Source: Amoebophrya sp. A120 (Eukaryota > Protista > Dinoflagellata). Taken from it: a DNA stretch of 64,000 bases. The notes beneath the pieces were generated by a model. The model was not told the DNA's origin, did not search any database, and saw only the letters and a program-made list of their open reading frames with translations. The stretch lies in contig CAJINV010000017.1 of assembly GCA_905178155.1 (NCBI GenBank), positions 1,534,269-1,598,268 of the forward strand, written 5' to 3'. A program made the translations under genes and the position numbers. Positions 740 to 55,094 of this stretch are shown here, piece after piece. Numbering within the stretch: the stretch's first letter is position 1; every line of letters starts with the position of its first letter.

Positions 740-3608
740 ATGTTGTCGGGCCCGATTTTTTTCAAAAAGTATCTGTCTGCAAAAAGATGGTGGAGTCGCC
801 AACTCCATCGGCAGATTCGAAGAGCACTACTGGGCGGGTCTTCGCATCATGGTTCACCCTCGCTGTGCGCTGACGCCGGCGGTAGCGCCTCACAGGTAAT
901 GGCATCTCACGAACGCCAGGTGCGGATGTATCACAGCCTCGCGGACGAGAATCCAGCAGATTGCCTCGCGGGTTTGAGATCACATACAGTGCCAGCCTCA
1001 GCGCTCTCTAGAGGGTTGACCGGCGTAGGAACCGTTGCAGGCAGGAGCACAGCGTCCTCCTCCAGGTCAACATCATCATCATCATCATCATCATGCCCGA
1101 GTGACGTCGTTCATAAAACCGGGAAGACGATGAGTCGTCAAAATCCACCAGCACGACAAGACCACGACCGCTACGAAAATCCCGATCCGCAAGAAGCCGG
1201 GATCACGGGCACGGCCTTGACGATTGGAGTCGTGTCCGCGTTGTGTTACGCGGTCGCGTCCGTGGTGTCCTTTTCATCATCTTCGTCCTCCTCGAAGAGT
1301 GCAAAAAGGTCAAGTTCCGCAGGGGACGATCGCAGCGCCAGAGGCGGAAAAAATACCGAAGTTCCCGCAGACAGCACGTCGCCCAGAATATCGCCACTGC
1401 CGCTTGCCAATCCGGAGGACGACCCTGAGAACTACGACTTCGTTGCCAAAGGCAGCATGCATTTTGTCTACCGCCTGAAGCAGGATATTAAAGGTCGTGA
1501 CGCAACCTCCTCCAACACCGTGCTTCGCGTCCGGAAGAACAGTCAGCAACAAGCGTTTTACGACGAGGAATTTCGACGGAGGGTTGTCAGATCGCTCTTC
1601 CCCGATTGCAACGTGCAGGTGCCGGAGATTGTATTAGCTTCGCCCGAGTTTCTGACCAGACTGGTCGAGCGAACGAGGGCGGCAGACAGTGCTACCTTCT
1701 CAGTAGAAGATGGAACTACAGCCAAGTCTTCTACAAACTCGGGCAGCTTGGCGTCATCTTCTTCATCCAAGAACGGAGATGATCTCATCCCGGTTTCTAA
1801 GCTCCGCGACGCAACCAGAACGTCCGCGTTAAGGAACACAAAATCTACTTCCGTGCTCACGATCGAGATCAAGCCCAAGTGCGGGTTGCAGGAGATCGAG
1901 ACGCTGCCGACGCGGTTCGAGATGCTGCAGTACCAGAAACTGCGGAACGGGGAAATCAGCCGAATCACGAGATATAATCCCGTCCAGATGTTCAAACCCA
2001 GGACGGCGGCCCGGGCGTTGCAAAACCTTTTCGACGAACCCCAGAATTTTCTGAAGGTGTTTCTCGACGGAAAATTGCTGTTCGGGGAGGAGCTGTTGCG
2101 AGGTAGTCCGACCGACAATACCGAATTAGATTCGAATCTTCACGACAATCTGATCGTGGATTTAGCCCGGGAAGCGGGGAAGGCTTTGAAAATATCGGGT
2201 GCGGGTGAAGGATCTACTGCTAGCGGACTTCCATCCGCGAAATCAGAGTTCCTTCTTGACCTCGTCCAGCAGGTCGTACAAGCGGACCCCGCTTGGCAAC
2301 GCATCCTCCACGTGCAGGCGTTCGCGGCCGGGCGAACCGCCGAATACGCCAACGAATTGCTCTATGGATGTGTTAGGATCGAAATCGTCAAAGTTGAAAT
2401 AGTTTGCCATGCATAAAAATGCAACGCAAAGATTGTCTCTATTGCAGAGGACGCAAGGGAGACAGATTGTAAGCCTTTTGAGAGGTAGAAAAAGAGCTGC
2501 TAAAGTAGCATGACAAAAGGAAAAGGCGCCGCCCTTACCCAAACAGCATGACAAACTGGATTTAGGTTCTAAGTTGTGCCCAAGTTTGTCATGCGCCACT
2601 TAGAAACTGGGCTTTCAACTGGCATCCATTTCATGCATGGCAAATTATTTCGACTTTGTCGATTTCGAACCTGACAGATCCATATACTCGAGCACTTGCA
2701 GCGGACGAAGACAAGCACGAGGAACATGATTCTTTCTGTCGACGACTACGCGGCTGCTTTACAAGCGTCCTATCCTGAGTAAAAACGTACCCACGCCAGA
2801 GTTGTAATGCAGATTTGCAAAGACAGGAAGACTTGTAATGCGCATCCCCTGGAGAGCCATTTCCAGTCGTGTTTTGGAATTTGTGATGCTTTGAACAGGA
2901 TGAGCAGCTGGATTTGTGATGCGGCTGCACTTGCTAACCTGCGCTACACTTTAGAGTGCAACTTGTCATGCGTGACTCACAAAACTCCTAGGTTTGTGTT
3001 GCAAAATCCCCATCCTGACTCTGGTGTGGGTACGTTTTTACTCAGGATGCGTCCAAATTTCGTCCCTTTCTGCCCGACGAGAGCGGGATGCGGCTCAGCG
3101 AGCGCGAGGGGCGAAAACTCGTGGAGCAGACGAAGAGGAGCGAATTTTTACCGGGGGAAAGGCAGTTTTCGCAGGCCTCGCAAACGGATTTGGAGAAACA
3201 GATCGTGGCGTACATTTGCAGGTATAATATGACTGTTGGTGTTGCTTCTTGTTGTAAATGGTACTGAATTTTTCATTTAGCATGACTTTCGTATAAAACT
3301 GCAACGGGTCGCTGTGAACATACAAAGCGGCATGAAGATGATGCTATTCCAATTTTCTCCTCGCCCATACCAGGTTCCTGCTCGGCCGCATGGCCATGGA
3401 TTTGAGCGTGATGATGAATTTCGTACACGCCGACGTGGAAAATCTGGAGCCTCTGCGCAAAGCGGGTTTCCGCCCGTTGCGCGGACAGATCTGGTACCGG
3501 CTGACTCTGGTCGATACGGATTCTAAGCCGTTGGACCGGTTACCAACGTATTCCAGGCAGCTGGCGGAGTACGAGAGACTCTGGAAAGGGATGCCGGGTG
3601 GCGGATAG
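740..3608 (+). CDS. IPK1: Inositol-pentakisphosphate 2-kinase; 4 exons interrupted by two introners and one GT-AG intron (3222-3373)
   Basis: Motifs FVAKGSMHFVY, VLRVRK, TIEIKPKCG, YNPVQMF, EPQNFLKVF. After splicing: AYICRFLLGRMAMDLSVMM (matches the FLxxxxxxDxSxM motif) and LVDTDSKP. The true start could be a downstream ATG. Confidence 0.85.
2363..2684. mobile_element. Introner E1 (322 bp, TIR about 52 bp) in IPK1
   Basis: Left end tatggatgtgttaggatcgaaatcgtcaaagttgaaat pairs with right end atttcgactttgtcgatttcgaacctgacagatccata. TSD tgctc/tactc. Removal gives ANELL-EHLQR in frame. Confidence 0.9.
2771..3049. mobile_element. Introner E2 (279 bp) in IPK1
   Basis: TIR tatcctgagtaaaaacgtacccacgccagagt / actctggtgtgggtacgtttttactcaggatg. 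TSD cgtcc. Removal gives AALQA-SKFRPF. Confidence 0.92.
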
Positions 3609-4720
3609 GAGTGAGAAAGTGGATTGCTGTGGCGCTGGTCTACTTGATGCTGCGAGGAGGAGCTGACAAGTTCAATGAAGCGCATTTTTTGCGATGGTGA
3701 GAGTGATCAAGAAAACACCTACTTCAAGTGAACAGTACTTCGAATCCGCATGCTAGCGCAACAAGCCACTTTTTTGTTGGATGTGATGTCCCCATGCAAA
3801 TCACGAGTCTTGAAGTTTCACGCTGTTTCGCACAGCACCAATGGCACTACGAGATAAAACACGTATGCGCATACTTACAGTAGACGAATACCACTAAAAG
3901 AGCCGAGTCGTGGAGAATGTTGGAGCGTGTTCACGTGCTAGCTGACTGTGCTAGGCAATGATATACACAGCGAATTCAAAATATACGTATGTATCAAAGT
4001 CAAACGAAACATAGAGAGTAGAGTACGAGAGCTGGCGAGCGCACCAAAAAAAAGCAAAAATGCAAACCTGAGTGTAATGATGTTTCTGTTTCAGAAGTTT
4101 CATCTCCGACTTGGCGAAAGCGCCTATGTAATGTGTAGTTTTTCTTGCTGACTCACACATGTCGCCATGACCCCCCTGCCAGACCTAAACGAGTGACTCG
4201 CTCAAGATGATTTTTATCTTTGAAAGTAGGCCTGCCCATCTCAATCTCGAACGCCATAAGTAAGAAGCAGTAGCTCCCAGTAGTACCACTAAGAATCTTC
4301 TTAATCTTCTTCTTTGAAGAGCGTCATATATAAGTTTCATCAACCAAGAGAGAAGATTTACTGCTATCTAAATTCTTCATGCTCGGCATCCTGTTTCTTC
4401 TCGTTCTTTGTTTGAGCCATCTTGTCAACGGCGATAGCGAGAGAAAGGCCTCAGACGAAGCAGGAGCCACCAGCACGGCTAGAAACTCTAGTCCACAAAC
4501 ACGAAACTCCCTCTCCCCGAGGACTAGCTCAACTAGAGAAAGAACAAGAGGCATGAGATAGTCGTGCTGGTGTACAACTAGACTAGTAGGTGTCGCGCCA
4601 AAGTGTTCCTGAAAGTAGATTTTCCATACTAGATTAGTTTGCCCTGTTGCCCCCTCCTCTTTTCTCCCACACACAACTTCTACGCCCTTTTTTCTTTACC
4701 GAACTAGAGAGCCCTAAGTC

Positions 4721-5902
4721 ATGTCCGCCGCCGCCTCGATCCGTACTTCGGTCCGGCAAACCCGGTTCTTCGCGACCACAGTGAAGCGCGCCGTTGACGC
4801 CCCGGCGCGGATCGAACTGAAGATGGGCGTAGGGCTTCGGAACCGGCGGCCGAAGGTATGGGACGGCACGGGGGAGGTGAACAGGTTGAAACCGGTGTAC
4901 TCGAAAGACCAAGTGAAGGAGTGGCGAGAAACCTTCAAAATGCCCAAGCTGCAGCATTCGCTGGGCAGACCGAGCTACAGTGACGACGACATATTAACTT
5001 GGAGAGCGGTCTTTGACAAGTATAACAAAGATCGTTGGACTGTTCGACAACTCTCGAACTACTGTAGACGGATCGAAATCGAATTGACTTTCCAAAACAG
5101 GTGCAGGCGTTTAAGTAGTGCACCTCAGTGCCACTGTCAACTACACGCTAGTGATTACTTATGTTGACCCCGTCCTCTTCGAAGTAAACATCGAACAAAT
5201 ATTAACTCAGGTACTGCAGTGGGCAATCCGGACAGATCAACCTGACAAACTTTCAGAAGCTACTGCAGGAAAAGTACCCCGACATTCCGGAGAAGGAACT
5301 TCCTTCGCTCGTCATGCGACACTGGAAGCAGTTCGATTTGGACGGGAACAACTTTATCGATTTCGGCGAGTTCTGCAAGGTGTCCTTCAAAGTGGACGTG
5401 TCCAGGATGCGGGAGTCGATTTTTGACGGCGGGAACAAGGAGAAAATGAAGGAAATTTTCTTGAAGTACCAAGAAGACGGCTACATAACGGAGACCGGCC
5501 TGTTTCAAATGATGGAAGACTACCGGTTCACCTGCGCAACCACGAGCGATTTGCGAAAGTTGTTGAGCCTGATTGACTATCCATTGCAAATTATGTCTGG
5601 GTCTAGAAGACGAGCGCAGGTTTGTCATGCTCAGCCAGCATGACTCTCAAGTCTGTCATGCAGGTTATGCAAAAGCCCCGACTTTCTGTCATGCAAAAAC
5701 CAACGTACTTTGTCAACACACAACACGTAGCAAGTCAGAAACTTGTCATGCCGAGCCGTCACTTGTGGCCTCCTCATGATTTGCCTCTCAGCGTCACAAG
5801 TTTCCAGACCCAGACACTTTTACAGTCCACATTTACAAGGACAAGGACAACATGCTGTCGGAGCTGGATTTTGAGTCCTGGGCAAAATCCGAAAAAGACT
5901 GA
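4721..5902 (+). CDS. Calmodulin-like EF-hand protein with a mitochondrial-type presequence; introns at about 5034-5224 and E3
   Basis: EF loops NKDxSGQIN, DLDGNNFIDFGEF, QEDGYITETGL and (after removing E3) DKDKDNMLSELDF. The N-terminus MSAAASIRTSVRQTRFFATT is Arg/Ser/Thr-rich with no acidic residues. Confidence 0.8.
5578..5831. mobile_element. Introner E3 (254 bp, degenerate member of the E9/E11 family)
   Basis: Ends tatccattgcaaattatgtctgggtctagaa / ttccagacccagacacttttacagtccaca. TSD ttgac/tttac. Removal restores the EF-hand LID-KDKDNML. Confidence 0.85.
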
Positions 5903-16295: not shown

Positions 16296-17317
16296 ATGCC
16301 CCCTCCACCTGCCGTGGAGCACAGCCACGCCGCTTGTAGTTCCTCCGATGAGGAAGGTGAAGCGCTCGGCCTGAATATCACAGGAAAAAGTGTTAACGGT
16401 AACGGAATTTGTGATGCAGTATCGCACCACAAAACGTGCCCAAAATTGTCATGCATAGCATGCATGCTAAGCAAAATTTGTCATGCATATTTGCAATCCA
16501 TGAAAATAACCGTTAACGTTAACACTTTTTTGTTTGATACTGAACACCAAATGGCTCAACCCGCACATTGTGCTGGACCAGGCCACCGCTTTAAACGTGG
16601 AGAGCGGAGACATCAAGCGGGTCTTGCAGAAGCTTTACGACGACCGGCTTTGTGAAGACGAGGGAAAAGCTGTAGTCGCCACACCGGATGATGATAATGA
16701 GATGTTGGTCTTCATCCCCTTCTCTTCCCCCGCGCAGCTGCAATCCATTTTCGTTATCGGTGGGGAGGGGTCCCAGCACCCGCGGAAGGCGCGGCTGTTC
16801 GCGAACCCGCCCAACAGCTGCACCGGGTTTGCCGATTTTGAGGACCGCCAGCCGGAGCAAGTGCTTGACTTGGCGGAAGACGTCCGGGGCGTCGTCGAGT
16901 ACCCGGTAAGGGCGAACAAGTTTGCAAATCTCCAGCAGCTCGTCATTCACTTTGAGACGGTATCTATAACGCTGCGAAGGGTCTTGTTGCGTGTTGTTTT
17001 TCTGTGTCGAAGTTATCGACGATATCATGCGAACACCCATGTGAAAAGATTACAGGTTGGTACGCAGCAGAGCAGGTTTCGTTTCCAATTTAGCGAGACT
17101 AGCTCAACAACTTAAAAAACTTGTGATACGTCGAAAATCACACCACTGAAATCAGGACGACTCCGCCGATGAGAAGAAAGTCCTTTGGATCGGCCCTAAG
17201 GGCACCCCCACCGACTACAAGCGCCAAGCAGTGATCACCGTGTACGAGAGCCAAGCCAACGTCGCAGACCACGAGGCACCCGACGACGCCTATGCGGCGA
17301 ATCTCTTGCAGCACTGA
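16296..17317 (+). CDS. PITH-domain protein, tandem paralog 2; introner E4 plus GT-AG intron 16960-17155
   Basis: Very similar protein to paralog 1. The shared intron lies after HFET in both genes. Confidence 0.88.
16376..16539. mobile_element. Introner E4 (164 bp)
   Basis: TIR tatcacaggaaaaagtgttaacggtaacgg / ccgttaacgttaacacttttttgtttgata. Perfect TSD ctgaa. Removal gives ALGLN-TKWLNPH; the site is empty in paralog 1. Confidence 0.95.
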
Positions 17318-20688: not shown

Positions 20689-23600
20689 ATGGGAGCGTGT
20701 CACTGCGGTGGTAGTAAGAAAAAGGAACCAGCAGATGATGGGACTGCAGCAACGCTAACGCAGTCAAACGCACCAACACTACCACCGCAAGCAACATCAG
20801 CGACTGCAGCGCAGGAACAAGAAGCTACAAACCTTCTTCCGGGAGAGAACTCAACATCACTCACCGCTCCGGCCGAAGAGGCTGGCGCTTCCACCGTCGG
20901 CCCTGCCGCAAATAAATCTTCAAAGTTCGACGAGGCAAAGCGGTCGACCTCCCGCGAAGAGGATGCTGCGTGGCTGCGAAAATATGGTCCGTCGATGGAG
21001 GCACTGGCGAAGGAGGTGCTCGCCGGTTTGGAGGATACCGAGGGACTACTAGTTTTCATGAATGATTCTACAGACAAAAAAGATGATAAAAACACTTCGA
21101 GCAAGGCCGCCAATAATGATGTTGACAATCAAGCACCAATACCACCGGCAAAAACTTCCAGTAAAACATCAACAAACTCCCTGACCCCGGAGACAGACTA
21201 CCTGGAACTGCTACTGCAGCTTCTGACAGAGGACGCGGACGAAATTTTCTACGCGGTCAGAACCACCGAGGCGCTCGAGGAGGCTGTGGAGAGGTTGACG
21301 CGGATCGGGACACTCTTGATCGACAAGCAGTTCCTGCAAATCGTGAAGTTGAACCGCGTGCTGCGCTTGTCCGAGGCGAAATACAAGATCATCGAACTGG
21401 AAAACTTCCTCGCAAACTACAAGTCCGAGCTCAAGTTCGAACCCATCAGCCCGAATCCGTCGCAGCCAAAGTTGGTAATCATCGCGGAAGAGCAGGAGGT
21501 ATCCCGTGGAAGCGAGGCTGTGCCATCCTTTTCGTGTGTATTTGCGTCCATTGAGAATTGCAATTGCATCAACTCGAGTGGTGGTGTCTTTGTTTTTCAA
21601 TGAATGAGAAAGAGAAAAGAGCTGCCGAGCCCTCCAGCTCGATCTCATCATCAAAGAGGTGCCATTTTTCTCATCGTATGAATAAGTACATTTGCCTTTG
21701 CATGATCTAAAAGTGCAATTCGTACGATATGTGCGACGAGCGATGTTGGCGTTTTTGCAATGCATAAATCGACAGCAGTCCGAACTCGGGCATAAACCCG
21801 AAATCCGAGAAACACGGCCCGACGGAGAAGGAAGACGACGGAGTTTTGCGGGTGCGCACAAGCTATGCAGGGCAAACACCTGGCCTCCGTGTTGTTGTAG
21901 TGTTATTCTAGATTAGAAGCAGGAACGTCTTTGTTGAAATGCAAGCAAACGGGTTTGGATGCGGATGAGTGCGCACCATCGGGAGTTTGAAACTTAATCT
22001 GATCCTGTGAAGAGGAGTCGCGATACACTTTGCCAGAGGTGATATGAGGAACTCCTAGTGCCTTATGCCAAAACAGCGCGCAGCTGAAAGTGAAACCGCA
22101 ATTGATTCAGACTTCACACCCAACAGCATTAATACACAGCCTTGTTGCACTGCATACATGAAAGTTGACTGGCGCGGATCAGGAAGTCGTCGTGACCAAG
22201 GAAATCCGGCCGCCGCAGGGCGCTTACAGCAGCAGCGTAAGTGCGACGGCGAACAAAGCACCAGCTGACGGAACAACTGGCGCTGTCTCACCCTCTTCTG
22301 AGGCGAATACAACAGACGGAGGCGCGACGACCAGTGCTGCTCCTAATGGAGCAGTTCCACCCGCGACCACTTTTCTCGATCCCGCCATTGGAGGGGGCGG
22401 GAGCGGCGGCACGGGCCCGTTGCTGAAGGAACGGACGCTGTCCCGGGACAGTAATCGATCGCAGAACAGCACGGGGAGTCGGGCGAAGGTGCAGGTTCTC
22501 GTCCCGCCCGCGCACGCCGAGATGGCGCAGTGTCTGTGCGACTACTTTCACGAGTGCATGTCGGGCAAATATAAAAAAATCGTCGACTCCATCAACTTTA
22601 CGCTGGAGCGGATGACCGCGGCGCTGGGAGCGCTGTACAAGGAGCAGCGGTTGGCGGACTACGTGCCGTTCCACCTGAAAAAGAAGGACCACGTATGAAT
22701 TGCAAAAGTATCGTACTCGTATAAATGCTTTACAAACTTCTTCAGCATGAGAAAGAAAATTTGTGATGCGGATTTGCCTTAAGAGCAAGATTTGCAATGC
22801 ATGTTTGCAATTACTACGAGCGCGATACTTTTGCACAGGATACCACGTGTACGACGTGGACGTAGATTTCGACATCCGCATCAACTACGCGGCAGACAAG
22901 GGAAAAGTCTATGCGTACTTTGACGCGAGCCCGATTCCGATCCCAATCCAGCACATTGCCAGCCTGGCGCACGAAGTAGATCGTATGATCGGTTTGGAAT
23001 TTCAAAGAGGTCGTCAAGCTCAACTAAGAAAGCTCCACCTCATTTCGTTAATCTAGCGCTACTCCTTGGCTCTTCGCACACATTTGTCTCCTGCTTGCGG
23101 CAACACAAACGACCAAAACAGAGGGAAATCCATCGGTCGGCGTCAACGCCATAGAATTTTTGCTTTCTCACTGGGCGGGTGCGGCGGGAAGATGGAGGTA
23201 GAGCTTGAGTGAGGCTTGCCGGAAGTTTTGAAGTTTTTTGCCTGCATACTTCTCTGGTCAGAGCTTGTTCCCTACGTTCCGAGCATCGACATCGTGAAAC
23301 AGTGGTCCTTCGCAGACAGGGTCCACAAAGTGACCATGGCGCCGCCGATACCGTGGTCCAGAAACATCGAGTGCTACATGCACCGCTCGCTGTGCGATTT
23401 AATGGAACTGGATGCCACAAATTCGGTGCTACAAATCCAGCCAAAACTGTACCAACCGACCTGGATGCCGTCGGATTGTACTGATTTTCATTGTAGTGCA
23501 GTTTGTAGCATCGTGGTGGAAGAACAGACTCTATCGTCGTGAAAGTTGTGCCTTCGAATGAACAATGGCCGAGCAGCTCTGTTGCTACAGAGGTGGTCCT

Positions 23601-25650
23601 GGTCCTCGTGGTTCTTGTTGCAAAACAAGACGATCATATTAGTTCTCCTTTTTAATTAAAAATCCAAATTCACAACCCGTTTACACGACGACACGCGTCT
23701 TCTACAACACAACGACTCTACAAAATCATCCAGGTACCCAGCAGCTGAAGGAGCGGTACCACTACCAGGCCGGCATTGCGATTTTCGAGGCGAGTCCGAA
23801 ACCCTACCCCGCGATCCGTCAGGCGGTCCAGGAAAATCCCGAACGGGACTTCCCCTGGCGCGACATCCGAATCCCGGGCGTCCCGAAGGACAAGCAGAAG
23901 AAAGTCTATCACAGCAAAAAGTGTTAACATTAACGGAATTTGTGATGCAGCAAGCAGCAATGCATCACAAAAGATGCCAAGATTTGTAATGCATAGCATG
24001 CATATTGGGCGACATTTGTGATGCATGTGCAGGTAGATGAGTTGTCGTATAGGATGAATTGCACCCAAATACGTATTAGGAATCCAGCAAAGCTTACATC
24101 GTATCGTATTGCGAAAGCTCGAAAACAGCGAGCAAAGCACTTTACCAGCCAATTTCTTCAAAAGCGAAAATGGCGGACCCTGTGTCGTATTTGCCCAAAA
24201 ACGAAGGCAATAGCTTAGCAGCTGAATTGTCACAAAGCGAAGCAATTCAGCGCAGAAACACAATGCAGCCTATCTCGGTCGATCGGAAATATATTTGCCG
24301 GCAAAAGCCAGTGACAAGCTTTGAAGCAAGAAGACAGCAGTCCACGAAAGTGGAAGTGCCCGACACGCTTCCAGGCGCCTCCGATAGAAGCGGTCGCTCT
24401 ACGTCTACAAGGCCGGTCGGCGGTCGCGCGGAAGGGCTGCGCAGGCGCTTGGCATATGGCGCGACTGGCAGTGTGCGTGCCGACGTGCTCCGCATAGCAG
24501 TAGCACTGCTTTAAACTTAAAGCAAAAGCGAAAATAGGCAGCGCGCGCGCCCTAATTTCGCATCGCGCCAGCATGCGAAAGAGGGCCCGGGGGGGGCGGG
24601 GGGGGTACACAGCCGCCCCCAGGCGTTATCTATGGGCTATGCCAGGCGCGAGGCGTGCCGAAAAATCATAATGTTGGGAGGCTTGCGGCAATTTGCTCGG
24701 AACGCTCCACCGCCACACGCGCAACCATGCCCAGGGCCCAGGAGAGCACTCCTTGGCAGTACCCCCGCAAACTGGCTGCGGTAAAGCGCAGCGCCTGCAG
24801 CTTTTTACCCGTTCCGCCATGCTTTTGCCCTCGAACAAGTGCGCGCGGAAGCCTAGGGCCCCGAGCAATCAAGCCTGCGCGGATCAGGTGATAATCACGT
24901 GAGGAGTCACGTGATAATCACATGATTTTGGCGGCCCATAAGCCATTTTGAGTTGTCTTCATCACGTGATAATCACATGATTATCACGTGATGACGACCC
25001 CGGAAAGGCGACGGCCAAAATTTCAAGATATGACGCTCCCCCCGTCATACGTGGAACCCAAAGCGGCAAAACAGTAACGATTCACGAAGAAAACGGAGCA
25101 AAGACGAAAGTCGAACGTATGAGCTATATTGTGACAATTCAGATCGCGCCAGAAACTACACAACAAAAAGTCAAAAAAGCAACTCAGCATGGAGCAATTC
25201 AGATTACTGCATGCATGCCTGCAATCTGTGAAAGCCGTTAACTTTAACACTTTTTCCTGCGATAAAGTCGCCCGGTTTAACACGGAGTGTTTCTTGATCA
25301 TCGGCACACCGTACTTGATCGCGAACCCCCATTTCGACCCGAAAAAGCCGGCCACGTTCGGGGACGACAACACAAACCCGAAGGCGCTCGAGGCGTTCCG
25401 GGCGCGGGGGATGGTGGAGGTGGACTGGAACCCCTGGGTGCGAACGATGTGCCCCAACGTGCTAGTGCGGTACATCGCGAAGAAAATTTGCAGCCAGTTG
25501 CTAACAAAAATGATGGAGGTGCACAAGAATTTCGACCAGAGCGAGCACAAGCGGCGGCTGGAGCAAGATGCGGAAAGGAGATTCGTTCTCGGTCAGCTAG
25601 CCGACCGGGTACAGGAATATTTAAAGAAGCGCTTCAAGAAGGTGAAATAG
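20689..25650 (+). CDS. Multi-exon protein with an N-myristoylation/palmitoylation-type start and a probable START/SRPBCC lipid-binding domain
   Basis: Starts MGACHCGGSKKK. Approximate exons 20689-21498, 22181-22693, 22848-22982, 23253-23425, 23734-23906, 25270-25650. Segments IASLAHEVDLWSELVPYV, PPIPWSRNIE and GIAIFEASP resemble protist START-like proteins. Some junctions are approximate. Confidence 0.6.
22694..22842. mobile_element. Introner E5 (149 bp)
   Basis: TIR tatgaattgcaaaagtatcgtactcgta / tacgagcgcgatacttttgcacaggata. Perfect TSD ccacg. Removal gives KKDH-VYDVD. Confidence 0.9.
22984..23248. mobile_element. Degenerate introner E6 (265 bp)
   Basis: tatg...cata ends, eroded TIR, eroded TSD gatcg/cttct. 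Removal in the 4|1 register gives HEVD-LWSELVPY. Confidence 0.55.
23907..25264. mobile_element. Introner E7 (E4 family, 168 bp host) carrying a nested insertion
   Basis: TIR tatcacagcaaaaagtgttaacattaacgg / ccgttaactttaacactttttcctgcgata. Perfect TSD aagtc. Removal gives QKKV-ARFNTE. Confidence 0.9.
24028..25211. mobile_element. Non-coding 1184-bp element nested in E7
   Basis: Ends TGCAG...CTGCA flanked by a tgcatg duplication (24022-24027, 25212-25217). Subtracting it leaves a host collinear with E4. Confidence 0.75.
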
Positions 25651-45400: not shown

Positions 45401-45736
45401 CAGTCGCAGCTCCAACTGCACAACAGGCTGCACGTCCACGAAAGCCAGAGAGAAACCGTAGGAGGCCAGGAAACAAAGTTTGAAAATAGCGCCGCAGAGG
45501 CAGTAGAAGAACAAGCAGAGCCGAGCATTCTGTTCTATCCGGAGGCCTTGCCATTGACCTCGCAGCCGGAAGAAGACGCGGTAGAGGACCTTACCAGCTT
45601 TTCTCTACCAGGAACGAAAGTAACTACACTGGCAGGAATGGAAAATAGAGAAAAACACTACAAGCAGAACTCGTTTCCGAATGGCTTGAAGCTACCACCA
45701 AAGCCCAGAATATTGACCGTTTCCAAGAAAATGTAA
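39449..45736 (+). CDS. Large low-complexity hypothetical protein (2095 aa) with coiled-coil segments
   Basis: 6.3-kb uninterrupted ORF rich in Ser/Ala/Glu; no recognisable domain. Confidence 0.75.
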   Translation: MSSFIAAGRSPPKEDVAHVEKPYPQAASSRPPRSRDSEQKGTERFFARPIVSPGAAGGASSKVDHALTGKNEQHQPRRHYSSASSTASAASNRTARSGPPSTWQDVEVITRPSTVPAVSSSASSSSSRSSISPSKQQVVQGLVNKQAAAPSRQKLQTNASTVDSGSVLHQIQQGDETKARPDLDLVKNRPTRTTGGPNNEDGEHDDAAVNVRALRAFGSGRQSSVLSNKLRSSINTLNTLRKSTIPDVSSSSSCESYDGTSSSASGSKGTSAPAVDHFFCDKAKSDGLFGARDERRSATTKPFLLGEPAAKAPASLDGNNTRNSGAADAPQGQGQVTKADGGKKNRAQDDRGRITVQLNVKQAAAAAANEEKNVENIAEPSKPAPVVFEALVQDEEEDGPLPVLQQEQKVKMEAHAIVTEAMSRSTERTEKAQEDVAMINRSSSEEAEKNKEGSGAEATATPAEANVSDGPPRARPIRLPDLLPKLNVLRYFKSISKQRERDLFVEDLHAADGREGDTSTEPALAAGTITGSENKDIASGALAPASISLNEHVEARPTLQLDGTAVLVDKPLQVVADDDAQMQKAIKPAVLLENFPRPASNIAEMRKTRLAAAAHQIRSSAAVLKRMRSSSGTGSSSGSSFSSTTGGAKDTRQKLRIWVNTTGASRAARVPEVATGKVLGSGVESGTVPVGRSSGDEPAGAATGATATAQITKIEATAVGHEDNSETTRTQNKRPSASVISMSSSTTLTEQLLQAAGAPIVPIRPALPQVFQAEAKRAVLPPTATLVAPAIVPKRPVAPMTILGLGTGLGAATGGSTSASSGRAAINPSAGCTTDVADDFRRTLLQSASRAKKPKIIPPRPAKAPQILAPPPLQEERGYVAAKLLQTKTLPVVWTAPTTPVAAAGGTRVAAALPKSAMLMSSSVGGPAATSTGNRSASPVSKIMFSPAKMRAAPAPSCSAASGAQSGAAGATTSFVPPTAPKLFAPASSPLQAGLFLPARGATVARATGTAAPMRVFDPGTSSAFLSSASSTSTGTSFLRPFDARQEQQPPQKSQTPPHLDTELARQFRLSLVPVHLPPPEKLPSKLSHKQVVTESVQKHLQVELERMKSRKKRIATEKSFFDLLYLGKLREMQEGAEVKNAALRRKIQRAKQDFADEVTEQIDRLRKFLLYSKDSWRSHDALVVKRNKKGPPGDDEETVLLQEHERYRLEEDETSSEEQEAEESQSSSLISATESKATRKSQLGKSSKMSCLTSSSSEQEKPVAVPDAAENDLDSPDAPAGAEGEEAGGEDEEVEGQHESGAPGAPKRPSKDSSGPPVSSAVHSPSEMAPSSPRDHAEQETPLPEDGGEANAAQLEPGSALSQVEGTEAGSAQSVSEAAVGGQALLSETAAVSNGTRSSTSAQHHSAVLKAAVKTSRLERVKGRENNKPKGGRLGRVGQEQQDGSLEAEQQPAQPRQQMLFYPEPEDGVDDKAGSASSADRTTKPMKSPSGRDGRKLPKRKPVKPKRNSDLQEAAKGIRQVDPSLDNSKMIHLPILEKKTDLKLAVEQSPGHQTKITAGKSDQVRHAAEQALAEAEERFGKIFYKAKFVVEEVDYAQEKEEEERHREHQGMKTASSANRDPRQYYLARRWQQFEEEVFKPCREERLKIHRETKHAAAVVKLARVLHFVTRDQLQHSFFQVAGMPQAAALFTEVEKDWLSQKKAKLRSEVQQEELTLLKRNKVRALTTTLHNCLVRKILAAAFFRLRYHTACRVTTASTGARTSAVASTSQKQDEALAAEGGPTGAPLAVPGSSSELDLLVDSDFDVKVSSGAAGKLLLAAGKRTTAESGDAPLDVLDTADSNSTKQAVVLAPAAKPLRQSRSSDVIVFSDDSPRGAGVLPMAELLEEPPAFRANEAATTTEPRVLVFDAATAADEQLGNDLAGNLGESASAPQRWSDRVLDFFGVSTALKDENTRAHAPSREDQIALPTVAVPSEAVPAATHHQSQLQLHNRLHVHESQRETVGGQETKFENSAAEAVEEQAEPSILFYPEALPLTSQPEEDAVEDLTSFSLPGTKVTTLAGMENREKHYKQNSFPNGLKLPPKPRILTVSKKM

Positions 45737-46261
45737 ATCAATATCAAATTATGTGAAAACACGATGAAGGTACTTCTAAAGCCTAGATTCTAAAACGCCT
45801 CGTTTCGAGATGAAATGGAAATGCACCAAGAGAATGAGAAGATTGAGCAACGCCACCGGCACGACACTGCCTTACAACTCGCGCGGGCAGCCGTGCGGTC
45901 GGTACCAAGGGAGATGAGAGGGACGGAACAGCTGGGAAGACCTGTCGTGTTTTCGTGATGCTGATTGCACCTTTCTTGGATGAAAAATTAAGCATGAAGA
46001 TGATCACTGAGTCGCCCAGCAGAGCTGCTGAAGAAGCTGCAGTGTTTTATCGAGATCCATTTCAATCAGTTCGACTTCGATTTGATGGCCGTTGCCGTTG
46101 GCTCCCAATGTAATCAAGATCAACCCCTTGTTGCCTTCGGACCACGAGTAAGTACGACCTGCTCCATTGTTTCATCGCTTGTGCAACAGCACTTCTCCCT
46201 TGTATACTCGTGAAGGAACAAAGTAGTACATGTTCAACAGACACTCTTCCACGAAAAAATC

Positions 46262-48001
46262 ATGTCCGGAGCTACTTCGAGCTCCTCCTCCGTGTTGCCT
46301 TCCGGCAGTACAACTAGGCAGTTCAGCACAAGGATCACGAAAAACGCCGAACGTGAAAATTTCGACCACTACCACAACACGGGCGACAGCGCGACGAATG
46401 ATGGTCCTAAGGAGCTTTTCACAGACAATGACCCAGCCACGACGATTAAGGGTTGTGGCTTCAAAAACAAACTCACCGCAGAACTCACCCTGCACCTCAT
46501 CCAGCAGCCGGGGTCAAGCTACAAGCAGTATTGGACGGTAAGGGCGATGCAGGAACGGGCGACAAGGCACCCGCACCAAACGGAGCAAATGCGAGAGGCG
46601 ATTACGGTGTTTGATAAGTGGCTTGTGGAGAGGGACGAAAGCATGAGCAGAAATGTTGTCACGGCGAGCACAAGTGGCAAGGCGAGCGAGAATGACCATC
46701 ATCATCAAGACGCTGTACTACAGCTGCAAGTTGACCAGCCGGCCGCTTTGCAACAGCGAAGAACCCTTGCTTTTTCCAAGGCGAACGCCCACGCGCGACG
46801 GAATTGCGATACTGATGAGGAGTTCCACAACTACACAAAACAAGACCGAAACGAGATGCTGAAATGTCTGCGCGAAAACGCAATGTCTACGGATTGGTTT
46901 GCGCTATCAGCGACGGCCTTTGTAGGACTCTTCGGCGGACCCGGGGAGCACGGCTATGGTGTGCACGTATGTTGCGGCAACTTCGAAGGAGACGCAAGTT
47001 TAGCAATACAGGCTGACGAAATGGAAGACAAGCACAAGCTTACATCTCATGGTCATGGAGAAGAAACGGCTGCCGGGGGTGGCGCAAGCTCAAGCACTGT
47101 TCATCAGATGAAGTTTTCTTTTCTGTACGAGAAGTACCGATCGGAGATGCAGAGCCGTTCTTGCAACTTCTCGAAGTGCGTCTGTAGCTTCGAGAACACT
47201 CATGAGGTCCATGTTGTTGGCTTCAATGCAGCATTAAGTTGTGCGTCTTCTTCCAGTGCGTCGAGGAAAAACAAGAGCGACTCAAACACATCATCGGCAG
47301 CACTGCATCCTACCAAGCGAGATCAGGACACCAAGTGCCACCTACCACTTCTTTCTGCCTTCTATTCCGTCTGTTCCGAGGAAAATCAGACCCATCCGTG
47401 GTTCCACTCCTCTAAAGATTGGAGCGTCAGCCAGCTTGGGTTGGGAAGCAAATTTCCCTGGACCGCTTTTTCTCTCGAGTACGATGGAGCACAGGAGAAA
47501 GCGAGGTTCGTGCGGAATCGGTTTTGGAAGGCGAAAGAGGATGGCGTGGAGACTGGCACTGACGGCAGCATTGTTGTCGCAAAAACCGGACACATCATGA
47601 AGCACCAACCTTCAGTGAAAGATTTTTTTTCGAGAAAACGACCAGCAGTTGCGTCTGTACAATCCGTGGTTGATTCTGGCACAAAGTGCGCTGTCCAGAC
47701 CCAGCAGAAGTACGCGACCTTTGCTAGTAACAAAAGGCAGAATGCATCTTCGTTGGAAACAAGGACAGAAGTCGCGACAAAGTTGATTTGTACAAAAAAC
47801 AGCGATGATGTCATTGTCTTGTCGTCAGATGACGAAGTTGACGTAGATGTACCGGGAAAACGAAAATCAAGGGCATTTCATCGTGGCCAATTAGAAATGT
47901 TGGAGCTGCGCACCCGGAGAAATCCTGGTTGCGACTTTTTTCGGTATTCTAGTTCTACTCTTTCCATCCAACAGAAGTTGTTAGCAGGTATGATCGTCTG
48001 A
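46262..48001 (+). CDS. Hypothetical protein (579 aa)
   Basis: Long ORF. The C-terminal part has SIM-like DVIVLSSDDE and PIP-box-like QPSVKDFF motifs. The 3' end may be spliced. Confidence 0.6.
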   Translation: MSGATSSSSSVLPSGSTTRQFSTRITKNAERENFDHYHNTGDSATNDGPKELFTDNDPATTIKGCGFKNKLTAELTLHLIQQPGSSYKQYWTVRAMQERATRHPHQTEQMREAITVFDKWLVERDESMSRNVVTASTSGKASENDHHHQDAVLQLQVDQPAALQQRRTLAFSKANAHARRNCDTDEEFHNYTKQDRNEMLKCLRENAMSTDWFALSATAFVGLFGGPGEHGYGVHVCCGNFEGDASLAIQADEMEDKHKLTSHGHGEETAAGGGASSSTVHQMKFSFLYEKYRSEMQSRSCNFSKCVCSFENTHEVHVVGFNAALSCASSSSASRKNKSDSNTSSAALHPTKRDQDTKCHLPLLSAFYSVCSEENQTHPWFHSSKDWSVSQLGLGSKFPWTAFSLEYDGAQEKARFVRNRFWKAKEDGVETGTDGSIVVAKTGHIMKHQPSVKDFFSRKRPAVASVQSVVDSGTKCAVQTQQKYATFASNKRQNASSLETRTEVATKLICTKNSDDVIVLSSDDEVDVDVPGKRKSRAFHRGQLEMLELRTRRNPGCDFFRYSSSTLSIQQKLLAGMIV

Positions 48002-48506
48002 CAAGCGACGCAATTGCGGCTCTGCAGCAGAGGTGAAACGCGTTGAGAAGTTGCGCAGTTTGTGTGATTCGTGAGACGAATACGAGAAGCAAGCCTGCTG
48101 AGATGTAGGCATAAGCATAACACTAGAGACTGCGAGGAATGAGACGCGTTTTTGCAGCGCATGCATTTCTGATGCAAATGTAGCAAACGGACCTGCAGTC
48201 CGACAATGCAGTTGGCAGCTGCAGCAAGCGCGATCATCTACATCTTCTTCCTCCAAACAAAGAAAAGCGAATAAGGATTTTAGGAATTATACGATTTCTT
48301 GCCCACAAAAAGCTTCGTTGCGTATTATAGCGAGGCATTTTCTTAGCTGCCGCAATCGCATCAATCTACAATATTCTGCGCGCATGGCTTCTTCGTTGAG
48401 TGGTTTTGTAATTGAATTTATATTTTTCCGTGACGTGATTTTTTTTTAATGTAAAAAATCATTTTCATGATCGTCCGTGTAAACAAAGCTCGTCTACCCT
48501 ACCAAA

Positions 48507-51500
48507 ATGTCGACCCGTCTCTCCTCCCGTACGCGCTCCTCTTCTTTCGGGAGCGCGGTGCACGAAGCGGCCCAGTTACGGGAAAGTTTATTGCAACAAC
48601 AGAACTTTCAACATTCGGACCAAGCCGCGAACCGCTACGGTGTCGCAGCGAAATCCCGGCGGTTGTCCGTCCACACGGGCGCCGCCAGTCCCTTGGTGGT
48701 CCGTGCTCACGCAGCGAGTGGTCGGGGACAGGGGCAGACGAGCTTGTTGAGTGTGCCGCCAAATGGAAATATCCTCGATGGAGGGGTGATCTCTCCTTCC
48801 GCCGTTTCACCGAGAGGAAGCGGCGCTGATGAGCAGCACGCAAACAATTTCTCACTCAGGCCAACGCCGTCGCCATTCAATATTGGCAGCAACAAAGTGG
48901 AGCCGAGAATAAGCAGTATCAGTGGAGATAGATTGCACCCAACAGGGTCTCCGATAGCGATACAAGCACACCAGGGCGCGGCAAGTCTTCTAGGGCAGCG
49001 TAGTATTTCGAAATCCGAAGTTCGTGGCGCAGCGTCTCCAAGAAAGACCACCACCAGCGATGCGCTTCATTTGCAGCTGTGGGCACAGCTGACCGCACTG
49101 TTGGGAGGGGGTGCTGATGCCGACGTTACTGATAAAGCGATATTGTCTGCTCCTGACGCCGATGCCCGAGCCACACTTCTACCAGGCGTGGAGCCAGCAG
49201 ATGAAGCTGCCCTTCTCCCCACGTCAAAAACTACAGCCGAACTCGGCCGCTCCACGGCCATCGCGTTTTCGTACGGAATCATCAACTTTGTGTGCGTTTT
49301 GCCCGTCATCGTCGCGTACGCGCACATTGTCTACGCGAGTAACGATTTCGAGGAATACATGCCGTACATTTTGAAAGTCGTCATGCTGAGTTGCTGCATC
49401 CACCAGGCCTTGTTCTCGTGGTTCAGCCGACTCCCCTTCTCCATCGGCCAGGTCCAAGACGTCGGCTTGATCTTTCTCGCGGCGATTACAAAAAACGTCC
49501 AGGAGCTCGCAACCTACCAAAACGCCCTAGCAGAGCAGGCACGGACGGCGCTACTGGCAAAAGCGGGCAATTATCCGGGTTTACCCGGCTTGGAGGGCGG
49601 AGTTGGCAGTGCACGACCAGCAGCACAACTTGCAGCCCAGGCCTACCACCCCATAACGACGAAGGAGATTGTTGCGACGAGTCTCTGGGCGGGTGGGATC
49701 GGCACGACAATCACCGGCTTGATTGTTTGGTACGTGGGGTATCGGCAGTTGGTCGACTACGTCTCGTTGCTCCCCTTGCCGGTCGTGGGCGGATATTTGG
49801 GTTACATCGGCTGGTTCTGCATCGTATTCCCTGAAAATTGACCGTCCCCATCCACTTTTGGCATGGCAAGCACATAATTTGCTACGTGTTTTCCATGACA
49901 AACTGGATGGGGGATGGTTAATTTTCAGGGAATACATCGCGGCGGGGTTGACCATCATGTCCGGACAACAGATCAACGCCCCCTGGACGGTGGCGCCGCT
50001 GTTCTGCGAGGAACAGGTGCCGTACTTGGTTTCCTTTGCGCTGTTTCTCGTGCTGTTTCTCTTCATCCACTACCGGTTGAGCCACCACGTCTTCGTGATG
50101 CCCACGGTGTTGCTGCTCGCTCCGGTCGGTTTTCTAGCCATCGCGATCTACGGCTTGGGGTTTACGCTAGAGGAACTGCGGGAGGAGAATTGGCTGAGCT
50201 ACCCGGCAAAGGGGCTGGTGTGGGGCCCGACACAATACGCGATCTACGATCCGAGGCTGGTGCACTGGAGCTTTTTGCCGAGGCAGATTGGGAACTTCAT
50301 CGGTACCCATCAATGAAAACGAATGCTCTTTGCTGGATTTCTGAACACTTCTCTACGCAAACCAATATATGAAAATCGCGAAAAGAATTTGAATCACATT
50401 CACCTGCATGATGACAAACACAAAGATCTAAATCGCCTACCAATTACCCTTCTCAGGTCTCACCATCGTGGTCACCTTCGGCTCTTCCCTGGACGTAGCC
50501 GCGATCCAGGCGGAGATTCCCTACCGCTTGGATTTCAACGGCGAAATGCGGATGATTGGCGGCGCGAATTTCATTGCGGGATTGACCGGTGGCATGACGG
50601 GCAGCTACATCTTCAGCCAGACGATTTTCTCGCTGAAATCCCAGGTCACCAGCAGTCTTTGCGGCTGGACGGTTTTCTTCTGCGAATTTCTCCTGTGGGC
50701 GCTACCGATCGACTTATCCTGCGTGTTGCCAAAACCCTACGTCGGTGCGTTAGTCGCGTTATTCGGCGTCGACATTCTCCGGGACTGGCTGTGGAAAAGC
50801 CGCGCGCTCCTGTCCCAGATGGAGTACGTCCTTGTGTGGCTCGCGTTTTCCATCATTATGGTTCTCCAGGGGTTAAACAGCTTCGGGGTGATTGAAGGGA
50901 TGTTAGTCGCGACGGGTCTGGCCTGCGTCACGTTTGTCTGCCTGTACAGCACCTTGCCGGTGTGGACGGTCGGGCCGCAGACGAGATCCGGGCAGTTTCG
51001 GAGGTACAACGAGCGGAAAGTGCTGGACCGGCAGAAGCAGCAAATCTTTGTGTGCCAGTTGAAGGGGTACATTTTCTTCGGCTCCAGTATGGATTTGAGC
51101 ACACGACTGCTGAACGCCGTGCTGGATCATTTCCAAAAGGCGGACAAGATCTCCAGATTGCAGTTCGGAGGAGGCGGATCTGTAGTGCAGGCGGGGACGG
51201 GGGGCGGCGACAAGGCCATCGTGACATCAAGTTTGATCCAAAATAATAGAGGTGGTGAGGGAACAAACAATCCATTTCCTGTCGCGCCGTCAAGACAAAA
51301 TCCCGATCAGAATCTCGCAACACACTTGCTGAACGAAGAAAAAACGGGAAAGGTGAACATCAAGAATCTCCCAACTCCTGCAGCAGCAACCACCGCAACA
51401 CGAGCCGGACGTCCGCCGCAGCCCAGCGAAGCGGTCTTCAACGTCGCAGCTGACAACCCAGCACGAATTTCGGTCCAAACTAGCGACTTCCCGGACGAAA

Positions 51501-54500
51501 GTAGAGAGAGCACGTTTGCAGTCCCGAGAATCAGTGTGGACGACCCGCGCTATTCCGCCATCGATAGCGTGGTGACAGTCGACCCATACGGGACAACTAG
51601 GGACTCCGCCGCGCAAATGAACCACCTGCCGAAAAACTACAGCGAATCCAACCGGAGTGGCTCGTCGGCTGTGCTACATGATCCAGCACACCTTCCCCTG
51701 TCGCAGCAGCAACCGCCTTCGTCCCACTACGTCTCCGGTACCGGGGGGCTGACCGATGACGAGTTGATTCCAGTCAACCGGGATGATAAACAAGCCAACG
51801 CAAACCGATCAGAGAATGGCATATTTGAGGACTTTTCCTACACACTGCAAATCAACACAGACGGGAATATTTCTAGCAGGACGACGACAAATCAAAACGC
51901 GATCATGCTAGAGCAGCAGAATAGTCCTCCTGACCATCAAGAAGAAGATCAGTTTTTGCACAAGCTGAATCTCCGGTCCCCGACCTCGGAAGCGTCGTTT
52001 GTCCTCCCGACACCGATTGGACCTGGAGCTCCTTCGCAGCCAAAATTTGTCGTGTTAGATTTTGAGCAAGTACAGAACATCGACTCAACCGCTTGCGTGT
52101 CCCTGGCGAGTATGAAAGTCTCTTTAAAAACCTCCGACGTGATGGTCTCCAACTCGCGCTTGCACTTCGTCTATTGCGGAATAAGGTCGGATTCCCTTCG
52201 GGAGCTGCTACAGGCAAACAACGCACTGAACAGCAACGAGGACTACGAGTTTGGTGCGTTGGAAGATGCCTTGAACTTCATCGAAGAGATGATTCTGAAC
52301 CACCACTACGAAAACTTAAGCCTGTATGAGGTGGAGATGAACTACACTGGCAGTGGTATATTAGCAGGAGGAAGTACTACTTCTAACCCGCCGCGCTCGA
52401 GTCTTGCGGCGTTTCACAAGTCAAGAAACGCAAACTTTGCCCTGACGCTCGAGGAGATCTTGTTGGAGTACTTTCGGCAGGACCCGACTGTGAACCCGCC
52501 GAACATGTGGTCTCCAAGGGTGACGGCGAGCTCGACTTACCGGCCGCAATTTTACCCCGCTTCTGCGTCTGCTGGCTACGAGCCACCGAAGCCGGTTTTT
52601 ACTAGTGACACAGGAGAGGGACGAGATGACACGACGGCAACTTCTGCAGGAGCGCAGCTAAAGAGTGCAAAGCAAAACGCCGCCAGCACGACCGAGTCGG
52701 AGTTCGTGCAATCTGGACAGAAAACCGCTTCCTTTCCGGACGAACCAGGAGTCGAAGTTGCGTTAACCAAGGCGACGTCGAGCACATCCAGCTCCTCATC
52801 GCAGCCGATGAGTCGGCAACTGCTGGTGCTGGCCGATAATTCGGAACTACAACATGAGCCTTTCTCCCAAGACTACACGAGCTCGAGCACGGCGCAGCAC
52901 CAGCAGCAGCATCCCCCACTGCTGGGGATGAAGCCGCAACACCAAATCTCCCTCACCGATATCCGGTCCCACGACTTCCTAACCGGGTTGCGGCAGATCG
53001 CCAAATCCTTCACGGTGACCTTAACACTACCCGCGGGCGCCGTCCTCTTTCGGTCAGTATCAAATGCAAAAATGTCTGGGTCTGGAAGAGTCATGCTGTT
53101 TTTGCATCACGCAGAAGGTCTGGCATGGAAGCTGTAGCATCACAGGTTTCGAAAAGCTTCCGCAATGCCGAATCCGCATGACAAATCCCCCACTTTGGTG
53201 ACAGAAAGTGGGCAGCTTTTGCTACCTATGCATCAGAGATTTTTCTGTGTGCTGAAATGCGCATCACAAGTTTGTATTCTTCCAGACCCAGACACTTTTA
53301 CATTTGATAGTCAGAGGACGTCTGCAACGCGGTGTTTTTCGTCAGTAAGGGTATCCTGAGTAAAAACGTCCCCACACCAGAGTTGTCATGCAAATCTGCA
53401 TGCCAAAAAAGTTTCTCATGCTGAGACGATTCCGGTTTATGATCCCAGTCCCCCCTCCCACCCTTTGCTTCTGTTGCAGAATAAGTCAAGCTGAGTCACT
53501 ACGGTTGCCGCGCACAAATTAAGCCTTTAAGTTGTCGCTGTGCCCCAGGTGGGTTGCCAGTCAGCAGTGCCAAACAACTGGTCTATGGTTTGACAACTGT
53601 GACCCGCTCGCTTGCCTTTTTCGTCCGTGCCGCAGGTAAGGCGCAAACGGTCCAGCCTCCCCTGTCTGGGCGGGGCTGCGGCTTAGGGGAGAGTCTCGCC
53701 CCTTCACCCAAAGGGGTGCGTCGTCTCTTCCGTGAGAGCAAAAACGTAGGGCGTAAAATGGGTCGGGTCCTGGATCATTCTGTATGTTGGGCTGTCGCGC
53801 TCGGCTTGCTGGCCGGGCTGTACCGATCAGGTGTGGTGGGTAGCTCCCGACTGGTTGGTACTTTTCTTGGGGCGACTTGCCGTGGTAGCGCTCGGCTTTT
53901 GTATGATGAGGTCGCCGAAAGTGCTTCCTCGCCCACCCCCCGGGGAGGGGATCCTTGACCTGTGGCGCTGGGAGCGGGTGTCCACTACATGATGATGATG
54001 ATGCTGAGCCCCATGAAAGGCATTTTCTAATCGTGTTTTGGGATTTGTGATGCTATAATCAGCATGATGTGCTAGATCTGTGATGCTGCTGAACTACCTA
54101 AACAGGATTACATTACAAGGACAAACGTGTCATGCGAAACAGCCAAAGCTGGTTGATTTGTCTAGCAGATTTCCCATCTTGACTCTGGTGTGGGTACGTT
54201 TTTACTCAGGATAAAGGGGGTGGTAGAGGTATCCGCGTGGCGCTCGTTGAAGAACAACGCGGCGAGTTTGATCAAGAACGATCCGACGCTAGGGGTTGCT
54301 GGTGGCGCAGGTCCGTTTGGAAATATTAGAGCAGGACCAGGAGGAGCTACAGCATCTTCACAGTCGCATCTTCAAGATCGACAGACGATGCCAACGGTCG
54401 TGCAACACCAATCTACTTCTGCACGGCAGGAAACGCTGAAGTCCACGACAATTTCCCCGACCCTGTCCTCCTGGCTCCGAACGCGTTCGATCCAATGCCG

Positions 54501-55094
54501 GCCCGGTGCGCTGCTGGGCAACACGGCGTATCAAATGCAAAAATGTCTGGGTCTGGAAACTTGTGATGCTGTGTGGCGTATCATGAGGAGGCCACAATTG
54601 CTGGCTCAGCATGACAAGTTTCTGAGCTTCTAGGTGTTGCCTATTCTGCATGACAAACTACGTTTCTGCATGACAGAAAAGTGGGGCGCTTTGGTAATGT
54701 GCATGACAGATTTAAGAGTCATGCCAGACAAGCATGACAAACTTGCATTCTTCCAGACCCAGACACTTTTACATTTGATACGGCGTTTGCCTACCCCAAA
54801 AGGGAGATGGTGTACGGGTTTGACGCGGGTTATCCAGAAAAAAACACCCATCCCCATCCAATTTGTCATGCAAAACCCGCATAAAGTGCAGTGTTTGTCA
54901 TGCTAAAAATGGATGGGGATGGGTGTTTTTTTCTGGATACGAGTGCGAGTGAGGATGTAGGTGCGGTAGTATTCAAAATCGATCGGGAGGCCATGCGCCG
55001 GATGGAGCTGCGAAATCCTAATTTAGCATTATTGCTGCACAAAGTCTTCCTTCAAGACATGTGCTACGACGCGATCAGAGACTTGGTTGACTGA
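48507..55094 (+). CDS. SulP/SLC26 anion transporter with STAS and cyclic-nucleotide-binding domains; five introners and one GT-AG intron (50303-50456)
   Basis: TM domain (IGQVQDVGLIFL, LPLPVVGGYLGYIGWFCI, GSYIFSQT), STAS (QLKGYIFFGS, FVVLDFEQVQNIDS), and a cNMP domain reassembled after splicing (AGAVLFRSEDVCNAVFFVSKGVVEV...PGALLGNTAF...IDREAMRRMELRNPNLA). Confidence 0.92.
49825..49934. mobile_element. Introner E8 (110 bp)
   Basis: TIR tattccctgaaaattgaccgtccccatcca / tggatggggatggttaattttcagggaata. Perfect TSD catcg. Removal gives WFCI-AAGLTI. Confidence 0.93.
53058..53309. mobile_element. Introner E9 (252 bp)
   Basis: TIR tatcaaatgcaaaaatgtctgggtctggaa / ttccagacccagacacttttacatttgata. Perfect TSD gtcag. 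Removal gives LFRS-EDVC. Confidence 0.95.
53352..54213. mobile_element. Introner E10 (E2 family, 279 bp host) carrying a nested insertion
   Basis: TIR tatcctgagtaaaaacgtccccacaccagagt / actctggtgtgggtacgtttttactcaggata. Perfect TSD aaggg. Removal gives VSKG-VVEV. Confidence 0.93.
53426..54000 (+). mobile_element. 575-bp SINE or truncated non-LTR-like element nested in E10
   Basis: 8-bp TSD atgctgag (53418-53425, 54001-54008), 3' (ATG)n tail, no TIR. 862-575-8 = 279 bp, the length of E2. Confidence 0.8.
54529..54780. mobile_element. Introner E11 (252 bp, E9 family)
   Basis: TIRs identical to E9. Perfect TSD cggcg. Removal gives LGNTA-FAYP. Confidence 0.95.
54831..54939. mobile_element. Introner E12 (109 bp, related to E8)
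   Basis: TIR tatccagaaaaaaacacccatccccatcca / tggatggggatgggtgtttttttctggata. TSD cgggt/cgagt. Removal gives FDAG-ASEDV. Confidence 0.93.

Follow-up and report, generated by a model that had tools for sequence, protein, structure and literature searches.

How the tens of thousands of noncanonical introns of Amoebophrya spread and are spliced is an open question, neither a transposase nor U1 small nuclear RNA (snRNA) having been found in strain A120 in the account of Farhat et al., in which U1 was undetected in A25 as well (PMC7789003). The 64,000-bp stretch of Amoebophrya sp. A120 DNA analysed here (contig CAJINV010000017.1, positions 1,534,269 to 1,598,268), referred to below as the window, bears on both halves of this question, because the 11 terminal inverted repeat (TIR) elements analysed within it (E1 to E9, E11 and E12) share a short internal motif, TTGTVATGC. 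What is this motif, and what reads it? We conclude that it is real, general and under selection, and we hold with moderate confidence that it forms an array of double-stranded DNA (dsDNA) sites read in transposition by one shared protein, probably an integrase-type DDE transposase, which would mobilise all the A120 introner families that have TAT...ATA ends and a 5-bp target site duplication (TSD).

Occurrence of the motif

Exact matches to TTGTVATGC numbered 28 in the window (20 on the plus strand and 8 on the minus strand), compared with 1.84 ± 1.28 in dinucleotide shuffles, and none of 100 shuffles attained that number. All 28 lay inside 10 of the 11 TIR elements (4,115 of 64,000 bp, ∼6%); E7 carries inexact sites only. 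With a position weight matrix (PWM) cut at 12 bits, the density was 10.45 sites/kb within the elements versus 0.083/kb outside. The first-pass annotation, which had described the motif as recurring in nearly every element and as rare elsewhere in the window, is borne out on both counts; 13 of the 19 coordinates that it listed are exact matches on either strand, and the sites at the other six (2994, 5653, 5686, 22792, 54668 and 54701) have a single mismatch.

Related loci were obtained by a scan of metagenome contigs in which the TIR of the most common family served as query; it gave 158 stretches and 156 loci, equivalent to 410 kb once overlaps were merged. One locus protein falls into one 90% cluster with an A120 protein, its A25 orthologue being 66% identical, so that, judging from the one gene tested, the loci derive from A120 or a very close relative. 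Elements were sought as TAT...ATA pairs with a TIR identity of at least 20/28, TAT itself being a search criterion. In the window plus the loci, 428 pairs were found. Of these, 244 have a 5-bp duplication without mismatch, 38 match at four of the five positions and 146 at fewer, the last group being discarded as probable cross-pairings between different copies. The 282 retained elements formed 17 TIR clusters, and 12 families once clusters with homologous interiors were merged. Since the bait family supplies 149 of the 282, cross-family tests were weighted by family or limited to one element per family.

Every one of the 282 elements carried at least one motif site (median, 5) when scored with a PWM derived from these same elements. 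Leave-one-family-out models recovered the motif in 12 of 12 families, with 5 to 157 sites per family versus 0 to 1.9 in shuffles. In an unseeded search, the highest-ranking interior 8-mer was the complement of the motif, which occurred in 16 of the 17 clusters; the resulting logo reads aaAYYTGTVATGC. Overall, site density was 16.25/kb in element-homologous DNA, 0.09/kb in the cores of long open reading frames (ORFs) and 0.47/kb elsewhere. Outside the called elements, 126 of 147 motif clusters showed homology to called elements along half of their own length.

No motif site was found in the 12 other repeated regions that served as a non-TAT control, nested inserts included; this control is weak, because none of the 12 is a clear TIR element. 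Rfam gave no matches. Viral contigs contained no match to the TIR 20-mer, and a motif-pair search in them returned 17 loci, none with a TAT TIR plus TSD, which were treated as unrelated. Two viral-contig loci, L158 and L164, hold short motif-like repeat arrays without TAT TIRs and are probably unrelated.

The families are not unrelated, as had been thought at first. E3 and E11 are homologous in reverse orientation (78.7% over 239 bp), and the further homologous pairs E8-E11, E2-E9, E4-E6 and E7-E12 reduce the 11 window elements to six families. TAT...ATA ends, an A-tract and the 5-bp target duplication are common to all families, which look like one superfamily. Within the TIR, positions 4 to 10 are variable, positions 11 to 14 form the common A-tract (74 to 90%), and positions 15 to 28 are family specific (top base, at most 51% across families), the two ends matching at 0.72 to 0.90.

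Geometry and conservation of the sites

With one element taken per family, same-orientation pairs 31 to 33 bp apart numbered 11.2, compared with 1.59 under random placement (maximum, 7 in 6,000), and such a pair was present in most copies of 10 of the 12 families. The spacing peak seen at first in the window is therefore real across families. Flank identity outside the motif was 0.288 within these pairs and 0.282 between sites of different families; units that are no more alike than unrelated sites indicate that the spacing is preserved without the sequence, and an origin of the pairs by tandem duplication is unsupported. Midway in the pairs there is often a degenerate reverse half-site, and inverted pairs were enriched at 15 to 17 bp (6.5 versus 2.2; P = 0.019).

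The first inward site lies ∼36 or ∼45 bp from the element end. Inward-facing sites were phased at 10 to 10.5 bp from that end (P = 0.013), and 91% of the inward sites at 31 to 52 fell at 35 to 37 or 44 to 47, versus 31% under the null, in windows picked post hoc. The three helical turns read into the spacing by the first-pass annotation are an incomplete description: the pair spacings lack a 10.5-bp comb and form instead an alternating lattice of ∼16 bp plus the peak at 31 to 33 bp. The two end distances do not follow a 12/23-like rule, since families combine 36/45, 45/45 and 36/36.

In five subfamilies of at least 13 copies each (130 copies), motif cores accumulated 4.4 substitutions per 1,000 on internal branches versus 28.5 for spacers, and 26.2 versus 66.6 on terminal branches (Fisher P = 5.5e-5). 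The variable middle base of the motif changed at a spacer-like rate. Among singletons, the values were 17.6 for cores and 21.6 for spacers. A regression of core divergence on spacer divergence over 281 copies had a slope of 0.12 and an intercept of 0.025, and this floor of ∼2.5% resembles the rate at which the two copies of a TSD differ (2.7%; 38/1,410 sites), itself a lower bound because pairs matching at 3/5 positions had been dropped. These values fit, without being decisive for, cores that decay after insertion yet persist along lineages still transposing.

Candidate readers of the array

The idea of a dsDNA site for one trans-acting protein, already put forward in the first-pass annotation, is the best-supported reading in view of the strand independence of the motif in exons (see below), the fixed spacing, the phasing from the end, the absence of covariation and a conservation that is strongest along transposing lineages; the protein itself was not found, and a host factor and a role in RNA have to be weighed against a transposase. 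The transposase would bind several sites along one face of the helix, set its catalytic domain on the terminal TAT, cut, and insert with a 5-bp stagger, and elements retaining the lattice would go on spreading. Since recognition would rest on the lattice plus the TAT end, we propose that TIR positions 15 to 28 would be free to differ between families and would need to match only between the two ends of an element. This self-match would also yield the RNA hairpin proposed for splicing (PMC7789003).

Several points weigh against a transposase. Pfam searches returned no transposase or integrase, either in the 27 ORFs taken from the window or in 148 locus ORFs (the longest of 276), a sample well below 1% of the genome. 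Farhat et al. report putative transposases from A25 alone and argue against general mobilisation by transposase (PMC7789003). The periodogram of all pair spacings showed no 10.5-bp peak, contrary to a simple helical version. On terminal branches, which contain unsampled transposition history, the core/spacer ratio of 0.39 indicates residual core protection, and protection persisted in the nine closest pairs (6/343 changes in cores versus 63/1029 in spacers). The majority orientation of the motif in 119 confidently exonic elements leaned towards the sense strand (58 sense, 39 antisense and 22 ties; P = 0.067). Core divergence, which was 0.039 both in exonic copies (108/2784; 77 copies) and in apparently noncoding ones (76/1933; 54 copies), speaks for the transposase, but on a split that is a crude codon-score call over 204 elements with usable flanks.

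A host protein, such as an architectural factor, a transcription factor or a domesticated transposase, might instead bind the sites as DNA, having been co-opted for mobilisation and possibly marking the intron for co-transcriptional splicing. All the evidence on DNA geometry would fit it equally well, and so would the residual core protection on terminal branches, the failure to detect U1 and the lack of a transposase both in the ORFs scanned here and in A120 according to Farhat et al. (PMC7789003). However, site densities close to background, both in long ORF cores and outside the window elements, do not point to a host role across the genome; the motif was missing from all the control repeats, and it travels with a single end signature, TAT...ATA plus the 5-bp TSD. 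A host factor is an unlikely, though serious, candidate.

That the motif acts in RNA, as a splicing signal (a protein or small-RNA site, or internal stems) in place of U1-type recognition, appears distinctly improbable. In all 10 of the window elements that were tested, removal of the element plus one TSD reopened the reading frame. Predicted pairing was higher in cores than in spacers (0.75 versus 0.57), a difference that would suit a role in RNA but that inverted copies of a single 9-mer should show in any case. The slight sense lean also favours a signal in RNA; the commonest variant holds a palindromic 4-mer, which makes part of the motif visible on both strands. On the other hand, fully co-oriented exonic elements were divided between the strands (four sense and five antisense; n = 9), and E7 and E12 carry opposite motif orientations within one gene. 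The variable base did not covary in inverted pairs (21/51 versus 0.36 expected), the TIR stem had no bias for G.U over A.C (130 versus 113; P = 0.30), folding did not differ between sense and antisense, and core decay was equal in exonic and noncoding copies. Exact spacing across random spacer, we infer, is a feature of the duplex.

Reads were compared with positions 44500 to 56000 of the window. No spliced junctions were observed in four read runs, the joint table being full of repeat artefacts. In a DNA-like run, depth at the TIRs exceeded the background by more than 1,000 times, a figure for summed contig depth and not for copy number, and the loose ends from other copies carried the motif again. 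An RNA run under the same species label gave 86 partial reads that contain the TIR at 53058-53089 and then the motif, at one other locus; the remainder of this segment drew no reads from this run, which possibly comes from another strain with a shared family. A second raw-read RNA run had no reads there.

A functionless relic of common ancestry or internal tandem duplication is very hard to sustain: common end features, some whole-element homologues and some interior BLAST match in 44 of 136 cluster pairs would suit it, but the reading is already contradicted by cores whose rate of change along internal branches is ∼6-fold lower than that of spacers, around a middle base that changes at the spacer rate. 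Whole-element homology, which the first-pass annotation named as a condition that would refute its view if it explained the motif fully, is at odds with cross-family matches of 17 to 79 bp that are apparently motif centred (apart from five merged pairs) and with the dissimilar flanks of the 31- to 33-bp units.

Window elements and known systems

The window elements are collected in Table 1. They have the features of miniature inverted-repeat transposable elements, being short and multicopy, with TIRs and a TSD and without coding capacity. Of all the elements, those of the loci included, only four are at least 500 bp long, and no transposase match was obtained in any of them.

Table 1. TIR elements of the window. 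Site offsets (bp) are counted from the terminal T to the variable base; > and < give site orientation
Element	Position	Host gene	Features	Site offsets
E1	2363..2684	Inositol-pentakisphosphate 2-kinase	TAT...ATA TIR element; 56-bp TIR; TSD 4/5	45>, 149<, 187<, 227>, 276<; weak 62<
E2	2771..3049	Same gene as E1	5-bp TSD; right terminal triplet mutated	Six co-oriented: 35, 66, 114, 147, 196, 227
E3	5578..5835	EF-hand gene	Decayed reverse-oriented E11 homologue; right end degraded, end coordinate approximate; no clear TSD	
E4	16376..16539	PITH-domain gene		37>, 52<, 74>, 106>
E5	22694..22842		5-bp TSD	37<, 55<, 71>, 102>
E6	23907..25264		E4 family; motif-free nested insert 24028-25211	37>, 59<, 81>, 113>
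E7	49825..49934	Sulfate-transporter-like gene	E12 family, opposite orientation	40<, 72<
E8	53058..53309		Most abundant family	83<, 122<, 176<, 207<
E9	53352..54213		E2 family; motif-poor nested insert 53426-54000	Sites at 35-121 and 697-810
E11	54529..54780		5-bp TSD	36>, 84<, 123<, 143<, 176<, 207<
E12	54831..54939	Same gene as E7	109 bp; TSD 4/5	Two co-oriented, 32 bp apart: 36>, 68>

The PITH-domain gene is one of two tandem paralogues (13820-15217 and 16296-17318; ∼78% DNA identity), of which only the second contains E4, and this allows an empty-site comparison: once E4 and one TSD are taken out, the sequence agrees both with a database protein and with the paralogue at 13.8 kb, which has no insertion. 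Over 140 aa, a PITH-domain exon of the window shows 100% identity to a protein under the label Amoebophrya sp. A120. The sulfate-transporter/STAS-like gene (48506-55094) is host to five TIR elements, and a 1.9-kb stretch at its 3' end accommodates four of these. From E6 and E9, the motif might have been taken for the subterminal part of long parent elements, a reading that does not stand, both elements being short ones interrupted by nested inserts. The E6 insert (1,184 bp) has short inverted ends of the TG...CA type and a 6-bp duplication and landed at a motif site; three ORFs tested in it had no Pfam match, and its size is near that of the 1,180- to 1,190-bp A120 families in the table of Gozashti et al. 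(PMC12130899), a lead only. The E9 insert (575 bp) has a duplication of 8 bp and a tail of trinucleotide repeats and resembles a truncated non-long-terminal-repeat (non-LTR) element, and part of it recurs in locus L030. A 1,104-bp element of the E1 family with a perfect TSD (L022:505-1608) has its sites mostly in the left 220 bp; its interior is purine/pyrimidine rich and repetitive, with no protein family match in the one ORF scanned, and its ORFs had no Pfam match. Elsewhere in the window, a motif-free array of ∼39-bp quasi-palindromic repeats (60658-61137) lies in a larger repeat whose flank (60337-60641) matches L013 at 93%, and nested palindromic repeats with 54-bp perfect arms and no exact motif (37812-38013), possibly a mobile element, lie in a 1.2-kb GC-mixed stretch.

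The elements themselves are already published as A120 introners, described with an inverted repeat of TAT, seven variable bases and an A run, with short direct repeats (3 to 5 nucleotides at the borders) and, for the families listed, lengths of 105 to 320 bp (PMC7789003, PMC12130899). The TAT plus A-tract repeat and the border direct repeats were found here too. Those accounts cover the terminal features, whereas the present analysis concerns the internal motif, its spacing, its conservation and the uniform 5-bp TSD of the TAT class. In the passages and supplement text covered, figures excepted, there is no shared internal motif, spacing rule or conservation test, and motif strings had no matches in 12 of the 14 supplement files of PMC12130899; in PMC6482013, the string occurs solely within a primer. 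We found no description of the shared internal motif in the literature covered, which excludes subscription papers and theses.

hAT elements generate an 8-bp TSD, while Tn7 has a 5-bp TSD and an integrase-type fold. Multisite arrays bound by transposases are established for Hermes (PMC10368747), a hAT element, and for Tn7 (PMC9308760), and in the A120 elements short sites likewise recur within the TIR, their positions and spacings being conserved, as in subterminal repeats. With Hermes, whose sites are bound by its transposase, the array shares numerous short sites of either orientation within the TIRs, asymmetry between the ends, an AT-rich flank and quasi-palindromic pairs (PMC10368747). It differs in the longer motif, the fixed pairing at 31 to 33 bp, its presence in at least 12 families with differing TIRs and the 5-bp TSD, and no BED-domain protein was identified here. 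The TnsB arrays of Tn7 similarly combine a short terminal sequence with an internal array in which spacing carries specificity, but they are bacterial, with 22-bp sites, a multiprotein system and no link to introns (PMC9308760).

Among integrase-related DDE systems, IS3EU/GingerRoot has matching TA..TA termini with a 6-bp TSD, and IS481EU has TNT..AYA termini, which fit TAT...ATA, with TSDs of ∼4, 15 and 25 bp (PMC10045372, PMC6839031; 'subterminal' does not occur in the main text of either). Here the TSD was a perfect 5 bp in 244 and 6 to 8 bp in none of the 282 elements, which were kept on a 5-bp criterion, lengths of 15 and 25 bp not having been searched separately; with 5 bp, the elements belong to neither group. 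The 4- to 5-bp TSD of Ginger2 would fit, but its termini are TG..CA. Gozashti et al. report an A120 TIR family homologous to transposase/integrase regions of LTR elements and list it as '5-bp TSD, TA/TA Termini' (PMC12130899), an end signature that, compared by description only, is the same as that of the motif-bearing elements.

A motif common to all TAT-class families turns apparently separate families into clients of one machine. It offers a concrete bait for the protein of that machine and a simple detector of old copies with decayed TIRs. It also suggests that transposon families may diversify their TIRs while specificity stays in an internal lattice. A bolder and rather unlikely extension is a two-layer code, in which one DNA-bound protein would read a helically phased lattice in thousands of introns, mobilising them and marking them on the chromosome for splicing without a detectable U1, while the TIR would only self-pair as RNA. 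If this were true, the introns of Amoebophrya would be defined by a DNA-binding code instead of by splice-site sequence.

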